This document shows, piece after piece, positions 1,449 to 36,364 of a stretch of 37,298 bases of DNA. Made by a program: the position numbers and the translations under genes. Source of the DNA: a virus. Taxonomy: Duplodnaviria > Heunggongvirae > Uroviricota > Caudoviricetes. The notes under the pieces are model-generated. The model made no database searches. It saw only the letters and a list, made by a program, of their open reading frames with translations, and was not told the DNA's origin. The stretch is from the IMG/VR virus record IMGVR_UViG_2737471849_000005; one strand, given 5' to 3'. Numbering within the stretch: the stretch's first letter is position 1; each line of letters begins with the position of its first letter.

Positions 1449-2105
1449 CTATTTAACATACTTGACTGTTAAACTTATAATTTTACCAATTATTTCAATG
1501 TCTTCTATCTTGCATTCGAAGGCTCTGTTTCCACCCTCGACGAAGATTCTTCCACCGGGTAAACGAGTAATGTCACGGATCGTTATTTCGCCATCAATAC
1601 TTATTACCCATTTACCATCACGTATATCATCAAATTCTTTATCACAAATAAATTCAGAATTGTTATCTGTGATGACAAAAGGTTTTTTAAACGTAGAGGG
1701 TAGAAATCCCTTATCAAAAATATAAAAACCGTCTTTCTGCAATGCTCCATCAGACAATAAATATTTTTCTACTTCTATAGTATTTGTATTTGCTGATGCT
1801 TGCTTTGAACCATGCCCTGTTGTTAGCCAATTAAGCGAGGTGCCCGTTTCAAGGGCGCACTGGATTACCCAATCTGCTGGAAAAATATCACGCATATAGC
1901 GCGTTGCCATAGTGCTCTTAGAAACACCTAAATGATCACAGAGAGCCTGACGAGTACCGAACCCATATGCTTCAACTAAACGTTCTATGGCTTTCTTACC
2001 GCCGCTATTGAAATCCACAAGTCCTCCAAAGAAATCCAAAATTCGTTGACAGATTCCAAAAGCGATCTTAAAGTTGAACCAGAAGTGTTCTTTTGGAGCC
2101 TTCAC
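1449..2105 (-). CDS. cI: CI-like immunity repressor (186 CI type, HTH N-domain)
   Basis: The translation contains EAYGFG...CALETG.SLNWLTTG and a C-terminal ...RLPGG...ECKIEDIEIIG that resemble phage 186 CI. It is divergent from apl. The exact start is uncertain. Confidence 0.75.
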   Translation of the reverse strand: MKAPKEHFWFNFKIAFGICQRILDFFGGLVDFNSGGKKAIERLVEAYGFGTRQALCDHLGVSKSTMATRYMRDIFPADWVIQCALETGTSLNWLTTGHGSKQASANTNTIEVEKYLLSDGALQKDGFYIFDKGFLPSTFKKPFVITDNNSEFICDKEFDDIRDGKWVISIDGEITIRDITRLPGGRIFVEGGNRAFECKIEDIEIIGKIISLTVKYVK

Positions 2106-2163
2106 TACTAATCACGACAAACAACGGCTCGCCACAAGCCATATCTAGAAGGAATGTTGCCTT

Positions 2164-2367
2164 ATGACACCTAACATTTCAATTACTCTGAATACACCAC
2201 ATGTCACAATCGAACGTTATAGCGAACTGACTGGCCTTTCTATTGATACGATTAACGACATGTTGGCTGATGGCCGACTACCTCGTCATCGTCTTCGTAA
2301 AGACAAAAAACGTGAAAAGGTAATGATTAACCTGGCTGCTCTGACTGTTGATGCTTTGTCTGCTTAA
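2164..2367 (+). CDS. apl: Apl/Cox-like excisionase-regulator (67 aa)
   Basis: A small basic protein encoded divergently from the repressor, in the position of P2 cox and 186 apl. Confidence 0.75.
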
Positions 2368-7649: not shown

Positions 7650-7838
7650 ATGCAGGACTATTTTTTGGAGTCTTTGAAGCTCCAGCGCATTGATTTTTTT
7701 CTTAAGCTTGTAGCGGCTAGTGAGTGTAGTGATGAAGAGAAGGGGCTGGCTCTGCAGTGGGTTTCTGAACTGACAGATGAACTCATGGCAAAAATCAGAA
7801 GCCACGAATACAACCGCTCAATGGATGTCATCAGCTGA
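7650..7838 (+). CDS. Small SOS-controlled protein (62 aa), possibly the N-terminal part of a Tum-like antirepressor
   Basis: An AGGAGG RBS precedes the ATG. It is the first ORF downstream of the LexA box. Confidence 0.5.
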   Translation: MQDYFLESLKLQRIDFFLKLVAASECSDEEKGLALQWVSELTDELMAKIRSHEYNRSMDVIS

Positions 7839-7848
7839 GGTGACTTTT

Positions 7849-8082
7849 ATGCGCATTGAAATAATGATCGATAAAGAGCAGAAGATTAGCCAGTCTACCC
7901 TGGACGCCCTTGAATCCGAGCTTTACCGCAATCTGCGCCCCCTGTATCCCAAAACGGTAATCCGTATCCGTAAAGGTAGCTCTAACGGTGTGGAACTGAC
8001 CGGACTGCAACTGGACGAAGAAAGAAAACAAGTGATGAAAATTATGCAGAAGGTGTGGGAAGACGACAGCTGGCTGCATTGA
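7849..8082 (+). CDS. DinI-like protein (77 aa)
   Basis: The translation MRIEIMIDKEQ...LDALESELYRNL...KIMQKVWEDDSWLH follows the DinI pattern (MRIEV..I.K...ALE.EL.RR...I..I.QE.WE..D.W). Confidence 0.75.
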   Translation: MRIEIMIDKEQKISQSTLDALESELYRNLRPLYPKTVIRIRKGSSNGVELTGLQLDEERKQVMKIMQKVWEDDSWLH

Positions 8083-8195
8083 TTTTGTCAATAGACGCTT
8101 GTTTTTACTAATCAAAAAGGGTTACATATGAGTGAGAGGCGATGTCAATCAGATATCGCCTTGTTTTTTGTCAAGAAAAGAATAATAGGCTAAAA

Positions 8196-8873
8196 ATGAA
8201 AATTAATAATGTAGCGTTACCAATATCTCTTGCTGTAATCCTAACTGGTTGCGTGCCACATGCTTCTAACCGAAATATCACTGCTATTGAAGTGGTGAAG
8301 CCTGCTATTGGGCAAAGTGCTACCGCCTACATGGGCGATCCCATTATCACATCTGCTACTGGATTTAAAACGGACGTACTAGAACTTGGTGCGGCTAATG
8401 GTGCATTGTCTTCTATCGCTGCTGGTACATATTGCAGTGAGGGGAATGGAATTTACCGCAATTATCATAACCCTCAAGCTGTTGCGTTAAAAAATCTCTA
8501 TGGGCAAATCGGTAACTATGTTGATTATGTTAGTTACGATGCTGCAAAAAATGAGATATCACCGCCAAATGGTACTTCTTATACTGCATCAGAAATTTCT
8601 ATCAAACGTGTTCCTGATGGGCTGTGTCGAGTTAGTAACTCATTGGTTAAGACTATCGAATACAATGGAAATGCAGGCGGTGTAATGAAGTTCACCTATC
8701 GTGAATTTGCAAACGATATGGCTCGTGCAGCATTTACAACAGATTTTTCTGTAGATTCTAAGGGAAGTGACGTTATCGCTTACAAAGGTGCCAAGTTCAA
8801 AGTGAACAAGGCTGATAACTCGTCTATTTCTTATACAATTATTTCTGGCTTTGACAAGGCTGTCACGTTCTAG
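8196..8873 (+). CDS. Predicted lipoprotein (226 aa), unknown function
   Basis: The N-terminus MKINNVALPISLAVILTGC carries a lipobox (LTGC). The gene is AT-rich, and the protein is Gly/Ser/Thr-rich and ends in Phe. Confidence 0.6.
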   Translation: MKINNVALPISLAVILTGCVPHASNRNITAIEVVKPAIGQSATAYMGDPIITSATGFKTDVLELGAANGALSSIAAGTYCSEGNGIYRNYHNPQAVALKNLYGQIGNYVDYVSYDAAKNEISPPNGTSYTASEISIKRVPDGLCRVSNSLVKTIEYNGNAGGVMKFTYREFANDMARAAFTTDFSVDSKGSDVIAYKGAKFKVNKADNSSISYTIISGFDKAVTF

Positions 8874-9198: not shown

Positions 9199-11535
9199 AT
9201 GATTGAAGAGGTAGTTATTGACAAAGTAGGCTCATATAATGGCCCTACTCAGCTTTTACATGGGCTTTCTAAATTTAACTATTTATATGGAGCTAATGGT
9301 GCAGGTAAAACAACTATAAGTAAAATTATTAATGACCCTGAACAATATCCAACATGTCCGATTAAATGGAAAAATAATATATCTTTAATAAGCTACGTAT
9401 ATAATAAAGATTTTGTTGAAAGAAATTTTAGTCAAGATAAAATTAAAGGTGTATTTACCCTTGGTAGCGATCTTAAGGAGGATGAAGAGAAACTAATATC
9501 TCTTGAAGAAGAAAAAAATAAGCTAATAGAATCTATTATAGCAAAGGAAAAGCTAATAGATGGTGGTGATAATATATTAGGCGTTGTTAAACAAATCGAA
9601 GACCATGAAAAATCTTTTAAAGATTCATGTTGGAAGCAAAAAGTAAAACATGATAATGTGTTCTCAAAGGCTTTTGAGGGATTAAGGAATAGTAGTGAAA
9701 AATTTAAAGCTAGAGTGTTGGCTGAGTATGAAAATAACACATCAGAAGTTTGCTCAATAGCAGAGCTAATTGAGAAAGCAAAAATTGTTTTTTCTACTGA
9801 ATTGACATCACATGTATCAATTACAATTCCATCCTTCAATGGGATAGATGATATTTTGAGTAGGGAGATTTGGAGTGAGCGTATTCTAGGGAAAAAAGAC
9901 GTTAGTGTTTCAGACTTAATTACAATGCTCAATAACAGTGATTGGGTTAAGGAAGGTTTAACATATTTCAGTAAATCTAATCCCAAGTGCCCATTCTGCC
10001 AGCAGGATGTAAATGATAATATATTTGATAATCTATCATCATATTTTGATAAAACATATGAGTTAAAAAAAAGAGAAATCGATGCATTGGTTTTACAATA
10101 TGAACATCAACTTAATAATATCTTGCAGGCGATAGATGATATAAGGGCGATTAAATCTCCATTCATAAATTATGAAGTATTTGAGGATAAGGCTAAGATA
10201 GTATTATCTGAATTAAACAAGAATTTTGAATTGGCAAAAAATAAACGCAATTTTTTAAGTGAATCAGTTCATTTTAGTGACTTAAGTGAAGTTGTTGATG
10301 ATTTTATTTCTTTTTTGAATGATTCAAATCTATTGATAGATAATAATAACAAAATACACAGTAATAGAAAGGTAGAGGCTAGTAATCTTTCTAATCAGAT
10401 ATGGGCATATATCGTAAAGGTGGAGTTAAAGTCTGAAATAACTTCTTACCGTAGCGAATCTGATAAATTTAATAGGAAGTTACAAGGACTTAAATCTGGG
10501 TTAGAGGAAGACAAAAAGAAGTTAATGTTAAATGCTTCGGCTATTGAGGCAATTGAGTCTAATAAAACCAGTACTCTTCCAACTATTACAAAAATTAACA
10601 AGATTCTGGATTCTTATGGCTTCAAAAATTTTTACTTAAAACCCTCCGAAGATAAAAAGCATTATATGATAGTGAGAGATAGTGGAGATAATGCTCGTAC
10701 AACCCTTAGCGAGGGAGAAAAGACATTTATCACTTTTTTGTATTTTTATAGCCTTGTTAGAGGGAGTGATAATGCATCAGGTGTTTTAGATGATCGTGTT
10801 GTAGTATTTGATGATCCAATTTCAAGTTTAGATAGTGATATTCTGTTTATTGTAAGTTCGTTGATTAAAGATTTAATGGAGGATGTTCGTAAGGATGAAG
10901 GAAATATTAAGCAAATTATATTCCTTACACATAATATTTATTTTCATAAAGAGTTGACTTTTAATACTAAAAGATCCGGTAATCAAGCAATGAAAGAGGA
11001 GACTTTTTGGATTGTAAGGAAAAAAGGGAAGGTCTCATATCTTGAAAAGTGCGAATCAAACCCAATAAAAACGTCTTATGATTTGCTCTGGTGCGAATTG
11101 AGAAGAACAGATATTAATAATAATACTATACAAAATACAATGCGAAGGATTTTGGAGAATTACTTTAAGATATTAGGTGGGATGGATATTAGGAAGCTTG
11201 AATGTCATTTTTATGGTGATGAAAAAATCATATTTAAATCTTTAGTGTCATGGATTAATGATGGTTCTCATTTTGCAGGTGATGATCTTTATATGAATTT
11301 AGATACGGAGTCTGTGCAAAAATATTTAATTGTTTTTCAGAAGATATTTGAGTGTAGTGAGCATACTGCCCATTACAAAATGATGATGGGTGAGTTTTAT
11401 AGACCGTTAAATGAGTCACTTCATCTACAAGATGAGTTTGATATTGATGATAGTGCGAATGATGAGTATGCTTCGTCAAAAATTGAGATAGAAGATGGAA
11501 TAAACACATCTCTACATAGCAATACATATTTGTAA
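9199..11535 (+). CDS. ABC/Rad50-like ATPase (778 aa), RloC/PrrC-like; candidate anti-phage defence protein
   Basis: The translation has Walker A GANGAGKTT, ABC-signature-like LSEGEK, Walker B/D-loop VVVFDDPISSLD and H-loop FLTHN. A long Lys/Glu-rich insert contains CPFC. The C-terminal region has RRILE (R-x3-E) and RKLECH (R-x4-H). The gene is very AT-rich. Confidence 0.7.
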   Translation: MIEEVVIDKVGSYNGPTQLLHGLSKFNYLYGANGAGKTTISKIINDPEQYPTCPIKWKNNISLISYVYNKDFVERNFSQDKIKGVFTLGSDLKEDEEKLISLEEEKNKLIESIIAKEKLIDGGDNILGVVKQIEDHEKSFKDSCWKQKVKHDNVFSKAFEGLRNSSEKFKARVLAEYENNTSEVCSIAELIEKAKIVFSTELTSHVSITIPSFNGIDDILSREIWSERILGKKDVSVSDLITMLNNSDWVKEGLTYFSKSNPKCPFCQQDVNDNIFDNLSSYFDKTYELKKREIDALVLQYEHQLNNILQAIDDIRAIKSPFINYEVFEDKAKIVLSELNKNFELAKNKRNFLSESVHFSDLSEVVDDFISFLNDSNLLIDNNNKIHSNRKVEASNLSNQIWAYIVKVELKSEITSYRSESDKFNRKLQGLKSGLEEDKKKLMLNASAIEAIESNKTSTLPTITKINKILDSYGFKNFYLKPSEDKKHYMIVRDSGDNARTTLSEGEKTFITFLYFYSLVRGSDNASGVLDDRVVVFDDPISSLDSDILFIVSSLIKDLMEDVRKDEGNIKQIIFLTHNIYFHKELTFNTKRSGNQAMKEETFWIVRKKGKVSYLEKCESNPIKTSYDLLWCELRRTDINNNTIQNTMRRILENYFKILGGMDIRKLECHFYGDEKIIFKSLVSWINDGSHFAGDDLYMNLDTESVQKYLIVFQKIFECSEHTAHYKMMMGEFYRPLNESLHLQDEFDIDDSANDEYASSKIEIEDGINTSLHSNTYL

Positions 11536-26518: not shown

Positions 26519-26545
26519 CCCCTATTTTTATTCAGGGAGATGATC

Positions 26546-27112
26546 ATGCTTATTGGCTATGTACGCGTGTCAACAAATGACCAGAACACCGATTTGCAAC
26601 GTAATGCGCTGAACTGCGCGGGATGTGAGCGGATTTTTGAGGACAAAATCAGTGGCACTAAGTCCGACAGACCGGGGCTTAAAAAACTGCTCAGGACACT
26701 ATTGGCAGGAGACACGCTGGTTGTCTGGAAGCTGGACAGGTTGGGGCGCAGTATGCGGCATCTTGTTACGCTGATAGAAGAGTTGCGCCAGCGTGGTGTG
26801 AATTTCCGAAGCCTGACTGACAGTATTGATACCAGTACCCCAATGGGCCGTTTCTTTTTTCATGTCATGGGTGCCCTGGCTGAAATGGAACGCGAACTGA
26901 TAGTTGAACGTACCCGGGCAGGGCTGGCTGCAGCTCGTGCTAAAGGCAGAGTAGGTGGACGCCGTCCTAAGTTGACCACTGAACAGTGGGCACAGATTGG
27001 ACGTTTACTCGAGGCCGGAGAATCAAGACAGCGTATTGCACTGATTTTTGATGTAGGCGTTTCTACCATTTATCGAAAATTTCCGGCAAATAAGAGCAAT
27101 AAATCTCCCTGA
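26546..27112 (+). CDS. Serine recombinase DNA invertase (Gin/Pin/Cin/Hin family)
   Basis: The translation MLIGYVRVSTNDQNTDLQRNAL...VVWKLDRLGRSM...FRSLTDSIDTS.PMGRFFFHVMGALAEMEREL is almost collinear with Mu Gin as I recall it. A GGGAGA RBS precedes the start. Confidence 0.9.
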   Translation: MLIGYVRVSTNDQNTDLQRNALNCAGCERIFEDKISGTKSDRPGLKKLLRTLLAGDTLVVWKLDRLGRSMRHLVTLIEELRQRGVNFRSLTDSIDTSTPMGRFFFHVMGALAEMERELIVERTRAGLAAARAKGRVGGRRPKLTTEQWAQIGRLLEAGESRQRIALIFDVGVSTIYRKFPANKSNKSP

Positions 27113-32513: not shown

Positions 32514-32995
32514 TGATGGTGCTGGGATTGTACGTGTTTATGCTGCGCACTGTGCCGTATCAGGAACTGCAGTATCAACGCAGCTGGCGACATGCGGCAA
32601 ACAGCCGGGTCAACCGACGTCCGTCCACGCAGTTTCTGGGACCGGACAACGACATGCTGACGCTTTCTGGTGTTCTTATGCCAGAGATAACGGGCGGCAG
32701 GCTGTCGTTGCTGGCTCTGGAGCAGATGGCAGAACAGGGAAAAGCATGGCCCCTGATTGAAGGCAGCGGCACGATTTACGGCATGTATGTGATTGAGGGA
32801 CTGAATCAGACTAAAACGGAGTTTTTCCGCGATGGTATGCCGCGCCGGATTGAGTTCACCCTGTCGCTCAAACGGGTGGATGAATCCCTGTCCGATATGT
32901 TCGGTGATCTCAGTGCGCAGCTGAATAATTTGCAGGATACGGCAACGTCTGCCTTAAGCGATATCAGTAAAACGGTGGGAGGGCTGCTGTCGTGA
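32510..32995 (+). CDS. U: Tail protein U
   Basis: Position and size match P2 U. Its start overlaps the T stop (ATGA). Confidence 0.85.
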   Translation: MMMVLGLYVFMLRTVPYQELQYQRSWRHAANSRVNRRPSTQFLGPDNDMLTLSGVLMPEITGGRLSLLALEQMAEQGKAWPLIEGSGTIYGMYVIEGLNQTKTEFFRDGMPRRIEFTLSLKRVDESLSDMFGDLSAQLNNLQDTATSALSDISKTVGGLLS

Positions 32996-34092
32996 ATTTC
33001 AGCTCTGAACTGCTTAACAAAGGCAACAAAACTCCCGCATTCAGCATCAGTATTGAAGGCAAGGATATCACCACTGTGCTGGACAACCGCCTGATGGGGC
33101 TTACGCTGACGGATAACCGGGGCTTTGAAGCGGACCAGCTTGATCTGGAGCTGGACGACGCCGACGGAAAAATCGTGCTGCCGCGCCGTGGTGCGGTCAT
33201 CACGCTGGCGCTGGGCTGGAAGGGGCAGCCGCTTTTCCCGAAAGGGGCATTCACAGTGGACGAGATTGAACACACTGGCGCACCGGATCGCCTGACTATC
33301 CGGGCGCGAAGTGCTGATTTTAGGGAAACGCTGAATACCCGCCGTGAAAAATCGTGGCACAAGACCACTGTCGGGGAAGTGGTGAAGGAAATAGCCGCGC
33401 GTCACAATCTGAAGATGGCACTGGGTAAAGACCTGTCGGATAAGCCCGTGGAGCATATAGACCAGACTAATGAGAGTGACGGCAGTTTTCTGATGCGGCT
33501 GGCGCGCCAGTACGGTGCCATCGCGTCGGTGAAAAATGGCAATCTGTTATTCATCCGGCAGGGACAGGGCAAAAGCGCCACTGGTAAACCACTGCCGGTG
33601 ATCACTATCACACGCAAGGACGGCGACAGTCACCGCTTTACCCTGGCAGATCGCGGAGCCTACACGGGGGTAATTGCCAGCTGGTTGCATACCCGCGAAC
33701 CCGCGAAGAAAGAAAGCACTACGGTGAAGCGTAAGCGCAGGACTAAGAAGCAGAAGAAAGAGCCGGAAGCGAAGCAGGGCGATTACCTGGTGGGGACGGA
33801 TGAAAACGTGCTGGTACTTAATCGCACTTATGCCAACCGGAGCAACGCCGAACGAGCGGCAAAAATGCAGTGGGAACGCCTGCAACGCGGCGTTGCGTCA
33901 TTCTCGCTACAACTGGCGGAAGGGCGGGCAGATCTCTACACGGAAATGCCTGTGAAGGTCAGTGGTTTTAAACAGCCGATAGATGATGCGGAATGGACCA
34001 TTACGACTCTGACACATACCGTCAGCCCGGATAACGGTTTTACGACCAGTCTGGAGCTTGAAGTGAAGATTGATGATTTCGAAATGGAATGA
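32992..34092 (+). CDS. D: Tail protein D (late control gene D family)
   Basis: Position and size match P2 D. Confidence 0.85.
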   Translation: MNFSSELLNKGNKTPAFSISIEGKDITTVLDNRLMGLTLTDNRGFEADQLDLELDDADGKIVLPRRGAVITLALGWKGQPLFPKGAFTVDEIEHTGAPDRLTIRARSADFRETLNTRREKSWHKTTVGEVVKEIAARHNLKMALGKDLSDKPVEHIDQTNESDGSFLMRLARQYGAIASVKNGNLLFIRQGQGKSATGKPLPVITITRKDGDSHRFTLADRGAYTGVIASWLHTREPAKKESTTVKRKRRTKKQKKEPEAKQGDYLVGTDENVLVLNRTYANRSNAERAAKMQWERLQRGVASFSLQLAEGRADLYTEMPVKVSGFKQPIDDAEWTITTLTHTVSPDNGFTTSLELEVKIDDFEME

Positions 34093-34171
34093 TTCTTCGC
34101 AATGGAGAACTTTTAAGTTTTCAAAATGGAATAATTCTTCGCAATGGAGAACTTTTAAGTTTTCAAAATGG
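34088..34171. repeat. Perfect tandem direct repeat, 2 x 42 bp
   Basis: The unit AAT(G/A)ATTCTTCGCAATGGAGAACTTTTAAGTTTTCAAAATGG is repeated head-to-tail, beginning within the last codons of D. Confidence 0.8.
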
Positions 34172-34224
34172 AATAATGCGGTATCATTATTGTGAATTTA
34201 GCAAAAATGGGGAGAACTCGAAAA

Positions 34225-34443
34225 ATGATGATTTGCCCACTGTGTGGAAGTGCCGCCCATACTCGCAGCAGTTTTCAGGTATCTTCATTGACCAAAGAGC
34301 GTTACAACCAGTGCCAGAACATTAACTGCAGCCATACTTTTGTTACCCATGAAACTTTTGTTCGTTCGATTGCAACGCCAAAAGAGTCAAATCCGGTTCA
34401 GCCGCATCCAATGAAATCAGGACAGGTGGCGCTCTCTCTTTGA
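34225..34443 (+). CDS. ogr: Late gene transcriptional activator Ogr/B (zinc finger)
   Basis: The translation MICPLCGSAAHTRSS....KERYNQCQNINCSHTF is close to P2 Ogr (..CPLC..AAH.R.S....KERY.QCQN.NCS.TF). Confidence 0.88.
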   Translation: MMICPLCGSAAHTRSSFQVSSLTKERYNQCQNINCSHTFVTHETFVRSIATPKESNPVQPHPMKSGQVALSL

Positions 34444-34518
34444 CGCTGCCGCCAATTTGTCGCCATCGTTAAAAAACAGTGCTTCTAACATCATGATTTT
34501 AAAAGGCATAAATTTCAG

Positions 34519-34565
34519 GCAATAAAAAACCCATCAACCTTGAACCGAAATGGCGGGGTTGATGG
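34519..34565 (-). terminator. Rho-independent terminator on the minus strand, probably for ybjL
   Basis: A hairpin (cccatcaacc / ggttgatggg) is followed by a T-run on the minus strand. Confidence 0.5.
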
Positions 34566-34678
34566 GCTCCACAAAATGGGGACATCAAAGAAAAGCAGTG
34601 GCACTAATTAAGACTGATGCCCTGCGGAAAAGTTCTGCGGTTGTGCAAAAAAATTTCATTTTCAGGGCAACTTCAGTT

Positions 34679-36364
34679 TTATCCTAATCCTGGCCATACC
34701 ATGACGATGATTGTCCCTGCCAGCGTCAGCAGGACGTTGGCGATTGCATAGGTGCCCGCATAGCCCAGCGCCGGGATGTTACTGCGAGCTGTATCACTGA
34801 TGATCTCCATTGCCGGCGCGCAGGTACGTGCGCCCATCATTGCGCCGAACAACAGTGCGCGGTTCATTCGCAATACATAAGCACCGAACAAGAAACAGAT
34901 AACCACGGGCACCAGACTGACAATCAATCCGGCAATCAACATCTGACCGCCAATCGCGCCCAGGCCGTTATTAATACCGCTACCGGCGCTCAGACCAACG
35001 CCTGCCATAAACACCATCAAGCCGAACTCTTTCACCATGCTTAATGCACCTTGCGGAATGTAACCGAAGGTCGGGTGGTTAGCACGCATAAAGCCCAGCA
35101 TAATTCCGGCGAATAACAACCCGGCAGCGTTCCCCATGCCGAAACTGAATGTGCTGAACTGGAAGGTGATCATCCCGATCATCAGCCCAATAACAAAGAA
35201 GGCGCAAAATGCCAGCAGGTCAGTGACCTGGCTGTGAATCGAGATAAAGCCGATGCGATCGGCGATGGTTTTTACGCGACGGGCATCACCGCTGACTTGT
35301 AAAACGTCACCTTTGTTAAGCACGACGTTGTCATCTATCGGCATCTCAATCTGGCTACGAATGACGCGGTTAAGGAAGCAACCGTGATCGGTCAACTTCA
35401 GTTGTGCGAGACGTTTACCTACAGCGTTATGGTTTTTAACGACCACTTCTTCAGTGACGATACGCATGTCGAGAAGGTCACGATCGAAAACTTCTTTACC
35501 GTTACGGAAGCTGGGATCGAGTCGGGCATGGGCGTCGGGATAGCCTACCAACGCTATTTCATCGCCCATTTGTAGCACGGCATCACCGTCTGGATTTGCC
35601 AGAATCCCGTTACGTCGAATACGTTCAATGTAGCAGCCGGTTTGTCGATAAATACCCAGTTCACGCAGATTTTTGCCGTCGGTCCAGGCCACCAGCTCCG
35701 GGCCGACGCGATAGGCGCGGATCACCGGTAAATAAACCTTACGGTTGGCATCAGTGTCCAGGCCACGTTCGCGGGCGATTTGCTGGGCGCTGGTCTGTAA
35801 GTCCTGATGCTGCAATTTCGGCAAGTAACGCGCACCAACAATCAAACTCACCAGACCGATTAAATAGGTTAAGGCATACCCGAGGCTCAGATTATCCAGT
35901 GCCAGTGAGAGCTGCCTGCTTTCCATGCCGGAATGACGCAGTGTATCGCCAGCACCGACCAGAACCGGTGTCGACGTCATAGAGCCTGCTAACATACCGG
36001 CCGTCAGGCCAATATCCCAGCCAAACAGCTTACCTAACCCTAAGGCGATCACCAGCGCACTGCCAACCATCACCAGTGCTAACATTAGGTAATTTTTCCC
36101 ATCGCGAAAAAAAATGGAAAAAAAGTTCGGTCCGGCTTCGACCCCGACGCAGAAAATAAACAGCATAAAGCCAAGATTAAGCGCATCGGTGTTAATGCTG
36201 AAATGTTGTTGGCCTAATAACAGCGATACGACTAAAACGCCAATGGAATTACCCAGTTGGATCGAACCAAGTCGTAACTTTCCGAGACATAGCCCAAGCG
36301 CGAGGACCACAAATAATAACAGAATGTAATTCCCATTTAACAATTCGGCGACGTTTATATTCAC
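34679..36364 (-). CDS. ybjL: Putative AAE-family transport protein YbjL (host)
   Basis: A 561-aa polytopic membrane protein whose N-terminal [29 protein letters not shown] matches E. coli YbjL as I recall it. Confidence 0.85.

Follow-up and report, generated by a model that had tools for sequence, protein, structure and literature searches.

In phage 186 (NC_001317) the stop codon of gene D is followed directly by the promoter pB (TTCACA-17-TATCAT), gene B and the terminator tB. Two CI repressor sites are curated at pB in the same record, ATTCACAAAAAGTGAAT over the -35 element and ATTCACGAATTGAGAAT after the -10 element, which bears out the statement in an earlier reading of the present DNA (hereafter, the sequence-only reading) that 186 B is under CI control. 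The CI operator pair of pB is credited, in a passage of PMC3675496, to Dodd and Egan (1996). Phage P2 (NC_001895) carries an ogr promoter of its own, the sigma-70-type Pogr, in a short spacer between D and ogr. From the 1991 work of Birkeland, Lindqvist and Christie, Pogr is said to be autoregulated and under indirect immunity control. The P2 repressor is of the C type, with direct-repeat operators (PMC1904268), and is thus unlike the 186-type CI encoded by the DNA described here.

The stretch of DNA analysed (37,298 bases; hereafter, the window) is a nearly complete 186/Fels-2-type prophage with its left end cut within int. The prophage is an Elveevirus-like member of the Peduoviridae integrated next to rybB/ybjL, and its nearest named phage is Klebsiella phage 4LV2017 (Elveevirus, Peduoviridae). 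Pfam searches assigned Int to positions 1-1209 on the minus strand and a 186-type CI repressor to 1449-2105 on the same strand (Phage_CI_repr, 3.3e-31; Phage_CI_C, 4.7e-29), with Apl, CII and Fil beside it, and also identified a Dam-type methylase and replication protein A. A strong sigma-70 consensus facing apl, TTGACA-17-TAAAGT at 2046-2074, is likely, judged by its sequence, to be pR. Towards the right end, the tail/baseplate gene D occupies 32992-34092 on the plus strand (366 aa in the ORF list; Pfam Phage_GPD, E 2.5e-27) and is named 'phage late control D family protein' in RefSeq relatives. It is followed on the same strand by ogr (34225-34443), whose 72-residue product has the size, the zinc finger (Pfam PF04606, E 5e-22) and the position between D and att of the Ogr/Delta late-gene activators. 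The gene agrees with the coordinates of RefSeq WP_000972391 ('ogr/Delta-like zinc finger family protein') in relatives, and its product shares 100% identity with the Ogr proteins of several Klebsiella phages and 55% with that of P2. A Shine-Dalgarno sequence, GGGGAGAA, lies just 5' of ogr, and to its right come the host junction, the RybB sRNA gene (34521-34599, minus strand; an Rfam-type match), ybjL, ybjM and grxA.

A 42-bp tandem repeat, well above chance expectation, is found at the D stop codon, 5' of ogr. The sequence-only reading had described it as a perfect duplication at 34088-34171. The repeat is indeed tandem and of that period, but units 34088-34129 and 34130-34171 differ at one base, 34091 (G versus A), the second letter of the D stop codon, so that copy 1 has TGA where copy 2 has TAA. 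In a period-42 self-comparison the truly exact stretch is 34092-34135, repeated at 34134-34177 (44 nt), and the whole array extends over 34077-34177 on the plus strand with 2.4 copies (TRF: period 42, 96% matches, 0% indels, score 188). It is by far the top-scoring TRF array of the window, and a scan of the whole window at periods of 10-199 returned no exact runs of 16 nt or longer other than those of the array.

The array is built from a 17-nt head and a 25-nt core in the order H1 (34077-34093, TTTCGAAATGGAATGAT), core (34094-34118, TCTTCGCAATGGAGAACTTTTAAGT), H (34119-34135), core (34136-34160) and H2 (34161-34177). The middle head and H2 both read TTTCAAAATGGAATAAT, and H1 matches H2 at 15 of 17 positions. 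Copy 1 (34077-34118, plus strand), made up of TTTCGAAATGGAATGAT and TCTTCGCAATGGAGAACTTTTAAGT, starts inside D, as the sequence-only reading had placed the unit; the five last codons of D, stop included (TTC GAA ATG GAA TGA), form most of the first 17-mer. This copy carries G variants at 34081 and 34091 and is found in all relatives. Copy 2 (34119-34160, plus strand) is the extra 42 bp, for which no relative has a counterpart, and it is headed by the A,A form of the promoter-proximal 17-mer; its register is ambiguous, since any 42-bp frame inside 34092-34177 gives the same insertion. The partial copy 3 (34161-34177, plus strand) is the ancestral promoter-proximal 17-mer. With up to three mismatches allowed, the 17-mer occurs in the window only at these three places of the array (0.17 expected). 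The junction specific to the extra copy, in which H2 is followed by the core, reads TTAAGTTTTCAAAATGGAATAATTCTTCGC.

A consensus scan of positions 33800-34700 returned a sole sigma-70-like site, TTTTCA-16-TATCAT, with the -35 element at 34160-34165 and the -10 element at 34182-34187. The -10 element is identical to the annotated -10 of 186 pB, and GTATCATTATTG around it is kept in Fels-2 and in Yersinia phage MLG42. The shared TATCAT, its conserved surroundings and the single site in the scan lead us to place the predicted ogr promoter at 34160-34187 on the plus strand, in keeping with the earlier suggestion that the repeat shares the D-ogr spacer with this promoter. The -35 element lies within H2, the partial third copy, and transcription would start near 34194, downstream of the array. 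No second promoter-like site arising from the extra -35-like head was found in the scanned interval. No intrinsic terminator was detected between D and ogr, so that ogr should also be readable through from the late tail operon, as is annotated for P2 and 186. Because the array lies upstream of the predicted start, it would be absent from the transcript of the ogr promoter and present only in the read-through late mRNA. A search of Rfam gave no family in the array and matched only the host RybB downstream. In RNA folding, the 2.4-copy sequence gave z = -2.1 versus z = -1.0 for 1.4 copies, and the better fold is explained by a small internal palindrome, GAGAAC..GUUUUC, that is now present twice; the resulting hairpin is longer, lacks a U-tract and leaves out the ribosome-binding site of ogr. 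Folded as single-stranded DNA, the array was unremarkable, with no significant structure.

The locus resembles 186 pB in its position after the D stop codon and ahead of an Ogr/B zinc-finger activator, then att and int, as well as in the TATCAT -10 element, the repressor family and the presence of 17-bp elements of which one lies over the -35. It differs in what these elements are. In 186 they are two dyad-symmetric A-type sites (ATTCAC-N5-GTGAAT), 32 bp apart and flanking the -35 and -10, that are repeated at FL and FR, whereas the 17-mers of the window, spaced by 42 bp, are direct repeats that show little dyad symmetry; one of them is D coding sequence, and they have no counterpart in the window's immunity region. 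The D-ogr spacer measures 132 nt in the window and 90 nt in its relatives, versus 66 nt in 186. With P2 the locus shares a sigma-70-type promoter belonging to ogr in a short spacer that contains no terminator; the P2 spacer, however, is unrelated in sequence and is without the 42-bp repeat.

Copy number was compared among relatives of the prophage, as the sequence-only reading had proposed for the D-ogr spacer. A 711-base query covering the locus had matches of at least 80% coverage in 1,117 E. coli records, and the full-length matches listed, the 99.7%-identical best match included, all span 669 bases, 42 fewer than the query. A 191-base query matched 1,132 E. coli records at the same coverage, and the best 60 of these 1,132 all span 149 bases. 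Klebsiella phages show the same 42-bp deficit. Forty-one loci were extracted, comprising those of E. coli MS10860, Klebsiella phages 4LV2017 and KP12, 36 IMG/VR contigs, Fels-2 and Yersinia phage MLG42. The extracted region is 208 nt in the window versus 166 nt in close relatives (39 of 41 loci; two measure 167), and the spacers of Fels-2 and MLG42 are shorter still. A MAFFT alignment places the difference in a single clean gap of 42 columns in the close relatives, opposite copy 2. H1 and H2, 42 bp apart, are present in all of the close relatives. The common allele is therefore H1-core-H2, of 1.4 copies, and that of the window, one unit longer, is H1-core-H2-core-H2, of 2.4 copies.

The extra-copy junction was not found elsewhere. 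A 40-nt probe gave no match in 20,395 records of 5,426 complete E. coli genomes, and a degenerate 30-mer gave none in IMG/VR or in the JGI metagenomes. The ordinary junction (H2 followed by GCGG), used as a positive control, was recovered from 931 E. coli records, 36 IMG/VR contigs and 13 metagenome contigs, which makes the negative results meaningful. The GTDB-representative genomes returned no match for either junction and are hence an uninformative collection. A collapsed allele of 0.4 copies, sought with a synthetic probe made of the head alone, was not found among the top E. coli matches; the probe recovered just the normal allele, as two pieces spanning 59 and 42 bases. The 2.4-copy allele is thus a singleton among roughly 980 sequences with the ordinary junction. 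Copy number did not differ among independent carriers in the manner of a variable-number tandem repeat, and with neither further extra-copy alleles nor collapsed ones the site is not a variable-number repeat locus. The type of event is familiar; the specific allele is unrecorded in the collections searched, and the duplication marks this prophage lineage.

The sequences on either side of the extra copy are those of the common allele. On the D side, H1 and the next 43 nt are as in the relatives, the reading frame and stop codon are intact, and the 3' end of D is the same as in E. coli MS10860. On the ogr side, the sequence matches the common allele exactly from 34136 onwards (about -58 relative to the predicted start), and between 34119 (about -75) and that point only two bases differ. 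Since the inserted copy has its own sequence on either side, the D frame and stop, the core of the predicted ogr promoter, the leader and the ribosome-binding site are all unaltered by it. An effect of the duplication on late-gene timing, which the sequence-only reading had raised, appears unlikely from this preservation of the promoter core and of some 58 bp upstream of the predicted start. A conspicuous repeat beside a master regulator would then be a one-off mutation that spares every recognisable functional element.

We consider that the array most probably arose as a recent, lineage-private 42-bp tandem duplication by slippage, and that it is most likely neutral. The common allele already carries near-identical 17-mers 42 bp apart, H1 over the D stop codon and H2 over the predicted -35 of ogr, so that the ancestral microhomology of 15/17 is spaced exactly as the new unit. 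During replication, a nascent strand ending in H2 could slip back onto H1 and recopy the core and H2, converting H1-core-H2 into H1-core-H2-core-H2. The same product could also result from an unequal exchange whose junction fell within the final two bases of the 17-mer. The middle 17-mer has both of the A variants of H2, as expected if the nascent H2 was kept. The new copies are identical over 44 nt, indicating that no substitution has occurred since the event and hence that it is recent. The best whole-prophage relative is only about 97% identical (about 97.6% over 25 kb), which means that the event is not datable against a near-clonal sister. The selectively neutral allele would simply be too young to have decayed or been lost.

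In these respects the array resembles the duplications attributed to slipped-strand replication or unequal exchange between short direct repeats. It is head-to-tail without a spacer, its new copies are identical, its register is ambiguous, its relatives are one unit shorter, and flanking microhomology is present in the ancestral allele. Nothing distinctive sets it apart from that class, other than that it is a singleton and not a polymorphic minisatellite. The sequence-only reading had offered recent replication slippage as one possibility, and all of the comparative data fit it.

The main alternative, which we regard as unlikely, is a change in the copy number of regulatory sites. The 17-mers, the dyad in the core or the AATGG sub-repeats would be sites for a regulator acting at the ogr promoter (candidates being the 186-type CI, an early phage activator, Ogr itself or a host factor), and with the extra unit further sites would be placed four helical turns upstream, changing the timing or tightness of late activation. 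Both Pfam domains of a 186-type CI are indeed present in the repressor of the prophage, and in 186 itself CI acts at two 17-bp sites to repress the homologous pB. The repeated heads are likewise 17 nt long, are spaced 42 bp (2 x 21) apart and include one over the -35; the CI sites at 186 pR are two helical turns apart (PMC3675496), which also counts in favour of this alternative. Each unit furthermore contains a 17-bp dyad, the imperfect TTCTTC-GCAAT-GGAGAA at 34093-34109 in the core of copy 1 and its second copy, made by the duplication, at 34135-34151. In addition, AATGG is strongly enriched in the ancestral spacer, where it occurs four times in 107 nt (0.17 expected from its frequency in the window), and a count of four was reached in none of 5,000 composition-matched shuffles. 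In the window allele it occurs six times.

Against this alternative, the sites show no relationship to the immunity region. Dyads with 6-nt arms and gaps of 3-7 nt were scanned for spacer dyads that share arms with dyads of the immunity region. Applied to 186, the scan recovered pB1/pB2 with FL/FR, giving three pairs at 12/12 and six at 11/12 or better, with none in 200 shuffles. No pair at 11/12 or better was found in the window (scanned with the ancestral spacer), a BL21 relative or Fels-2, where matches of 10/12 were at chance level; the window gave one such match, equalled by 77% of shuffles. An ATTCAC-N5-GTGAAT-like pair was absent from the D-ogr spacer in a scan that finds the sites of 186. 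The dyads that the window spacer does contain are that at 34093-34109 with its copy, upstream of the predicted promoter, and one rich in A and T that spans the -10. Dyad symmetry is poor in the 17-mers, and the arms and centre of the core dyad vary among relatives (KP12, 4LV2017 and locus L023). Elsewhere in the prophage, the 17-mer (up to three mismatches), the 11-nt sub-repeat consensus TCRMAATGGAR and the dyad TTCTTC-N5-GGAGAA did not recur above chance. TCCAAA-like motifs at the window's pR, set beside TCCAT on the minus strand of the repeat, were set aside as a coincidence of 4-5-mers without statistical support.

The distribution of the spacer points the same way. The CI-pR-apl region of the window is found in only 114 E. 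coli genomes versus about 1,115 with the spacer, and the pR regions clearly differ among the prophages of the window, BL21 and KP12 while the spacers are near-identical, although the CI helix-turn-helix regions of these prophages are similar and a shared specificity is possible. A spacer that is nearly invariant where the pR regions differ wholesale argues against repressor control through the repeat, as the sequence-only reading had envisaged it. Nor does the array correspond to the direct-repeat operators of the P2 C type, as the repressor is of the 186 CI type and the direct repeats are not at pR. The added copy also lies beyond about -58, past the usual reach of a core-promoter repressor. 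Finally, published transcriptomics of another P2-like prophage, BTP5, show ogr expression in the lysogen in every condition that was tested (PMC7067206), so that tight repression of this class of promoter is not universal. These sequence comparisons give no support to direct CI control via the repeat, without disproving it.

An assembly or sequencing artefact is a very unlikely explanation. The real genome would in that case have 1.4 copies, with the extra unit introduced by mis-assembly or consensus polishing, and the rarity of the allele, seen once against roughly 980 ordinary junctions, is what an artefact would also give. The 42-bp unit is, however, far below any read length, and assemblers normally collapse short tandem repeats instead of lengthening them. 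Moreover, the inserted unit is exact, keeps the register and is bordered by the microhomology that biological slippage should leave, and the sequence around it does not look corrupted, with D and ogr intact and the same as in relatives.

The sub-repeats of the spacer admit a further reading, which we hold to be highly doubtful. The D-ogr spacer of this clade would be a direct-repeat binding array, with the consensus TCRMAATGGAR, for a regulator of the late switch, built by successive slippage. In such an array there would be four AATGG-centred copies in the common allele and six in the window, the last adjoining the ogr ribosome-binding site, and an early phage product or Ogr itself would be the candidate regulators. 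The 17-mer has a weak third copy within the core (10/15, p about 0.02), and the sequence GGAGAACT, present in each core, is found once more in the ribosome-binding region of ogr. In Fels-2 a comparable pair of heads is spaced just 21 bp apart, and the core is missing. A growth series could be drawn on the binding-array reading from a Fels-2-like state (two heads 21 bp apart) through an Elveevirus-like state (three) to the window allele (five). If the binding array were true, the window allele would be a natural gain-of-sites mutant that retunes late-gene timing. The simplest reading of these sequences is that a short region of the spacer grew by slippage more than once as the phages diverged, and a binding array for some factor is less likely than such repeated slippage.

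It is scarcely credible that the repeat lengthens a genuine small protein translationally coupled to D: although the 78-aa ORF at 34089-34325 (plus strand; 14 codons per unit, with ILRNGELLSFQNGI present twice) overlaps the D stop in an ATGA stop-start at 34089-34092 and the 14-codon unit preserves its frame, it crosses the predicted ogr promoter and runs into ogr out of frame, has no annotation in RefSeq relatives, encodes a low-complexity peptide for which no homology evidence was found, and is closed after six codons in Fels-2, in agreement with the earlier description of the repeat-encoded ORF as spurious. The ORF list holds a second repeat-encoded ORF, of 41 aa, at 34070-34195.

On the preferred account of a neutral slippage duplication, the repeat matters little and is to be taken neither for a regulatory innovation nor for a gene. 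It does provide a natural variant with which to ask whether sequence upstream of -58 affects the ogr promoter in 186/Fels-2-type phages. The prophage module occurs in roughly one in five complete E. coli genomes, and for this widespread module the comparison yields a usable prediction of the ogr promoter.

In the common allele of the D-ogr spacer (1.4 copies of the 42-bp unit), AATGG-centred sub-repeats of the form TCRMAATGGAR occur four times (window 34077–34225), and the last of these adjoins the ribosome-binding site of ogr, the late-gene activator. The same spacer in Fels-2 (locus L039, positions 815–925) has two related heads, counterparts of the near-identical 17-mers that bracket a 25-nt core in the common allele; these lie 21 bp apart and are without the core. 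The fourfold sub-repeats, together with the coreless pair of heads in Fels-2, point to stepwise growth of the spacer through repeated slippage.

Of 5,426 complete E. coli genomes, about 1,115 carry the D-ogr module of the window prophage, whose ogr also has 100% identical counterparts in several Klebsiella phages. Only 114 of the genomes share its CI-pR-apl module, which includes the 186-type repressor and the likely pR facing apl, and by this comparison of distributions the mosaicism between immunity and late-control modules is strong. Within the immunity region (window 1990–2170), pR is likely to correspond to the sequence match TTGACA-17-TAAAGT at 2046–2074. Several TCCAAA(A/G) motifs surround this predicted promoter (plus strand at 2025, 2035 and 2055, with an inverted copy at 2092–2098), and downstream of it a run of YCAC motifs spaced by ~10–11 bp, at about 2101–2135, appears to resemble Apl-type direct repeats. 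Translation of CI probably starts at the GTG near 2019, which is preceded by a GGAGGA Shine-Dalgarno sequence, rather than at the GTG at 2105.

Between the portal gene and replication gene A lies a cargo spot that contains a 778 amino acid AAA_13 ATPase (9199–11535, plus strand); this protein matches PDC-S06, a candidate defence family in PADLOC, at E 1.5e-266, with a DinI-like gene (7777–8082) and an unannotated 243 amino acid ORF (8142–8873) as neighbours. As the BL21 relative carries a retron St85 system in the equivalent position, the spot looks like a swappable defence hotspot.

A serine invertase gene (26540–27112, plus strand; Resolvase and HTH_7 domains) adjoins tail-fibre and tail-fibre-assembly ORFs of opposite orientation, an arrangement that suggests a Gin/Cin-type invertible host-range segment.

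The right end of the prophage is immediately adjoined by the host sRNA gene rybB (34521–34599, minus strand; Rfam RF00110, 105.8 bits, full length). Host-like sequence begins at ~34508, so the attachment site overlaps the rybB 3′ end. The prophages of BL21-derived Rosetta2 and MS10860 occupy the identical insertion position, between rcdA/ybjK and ybjL.
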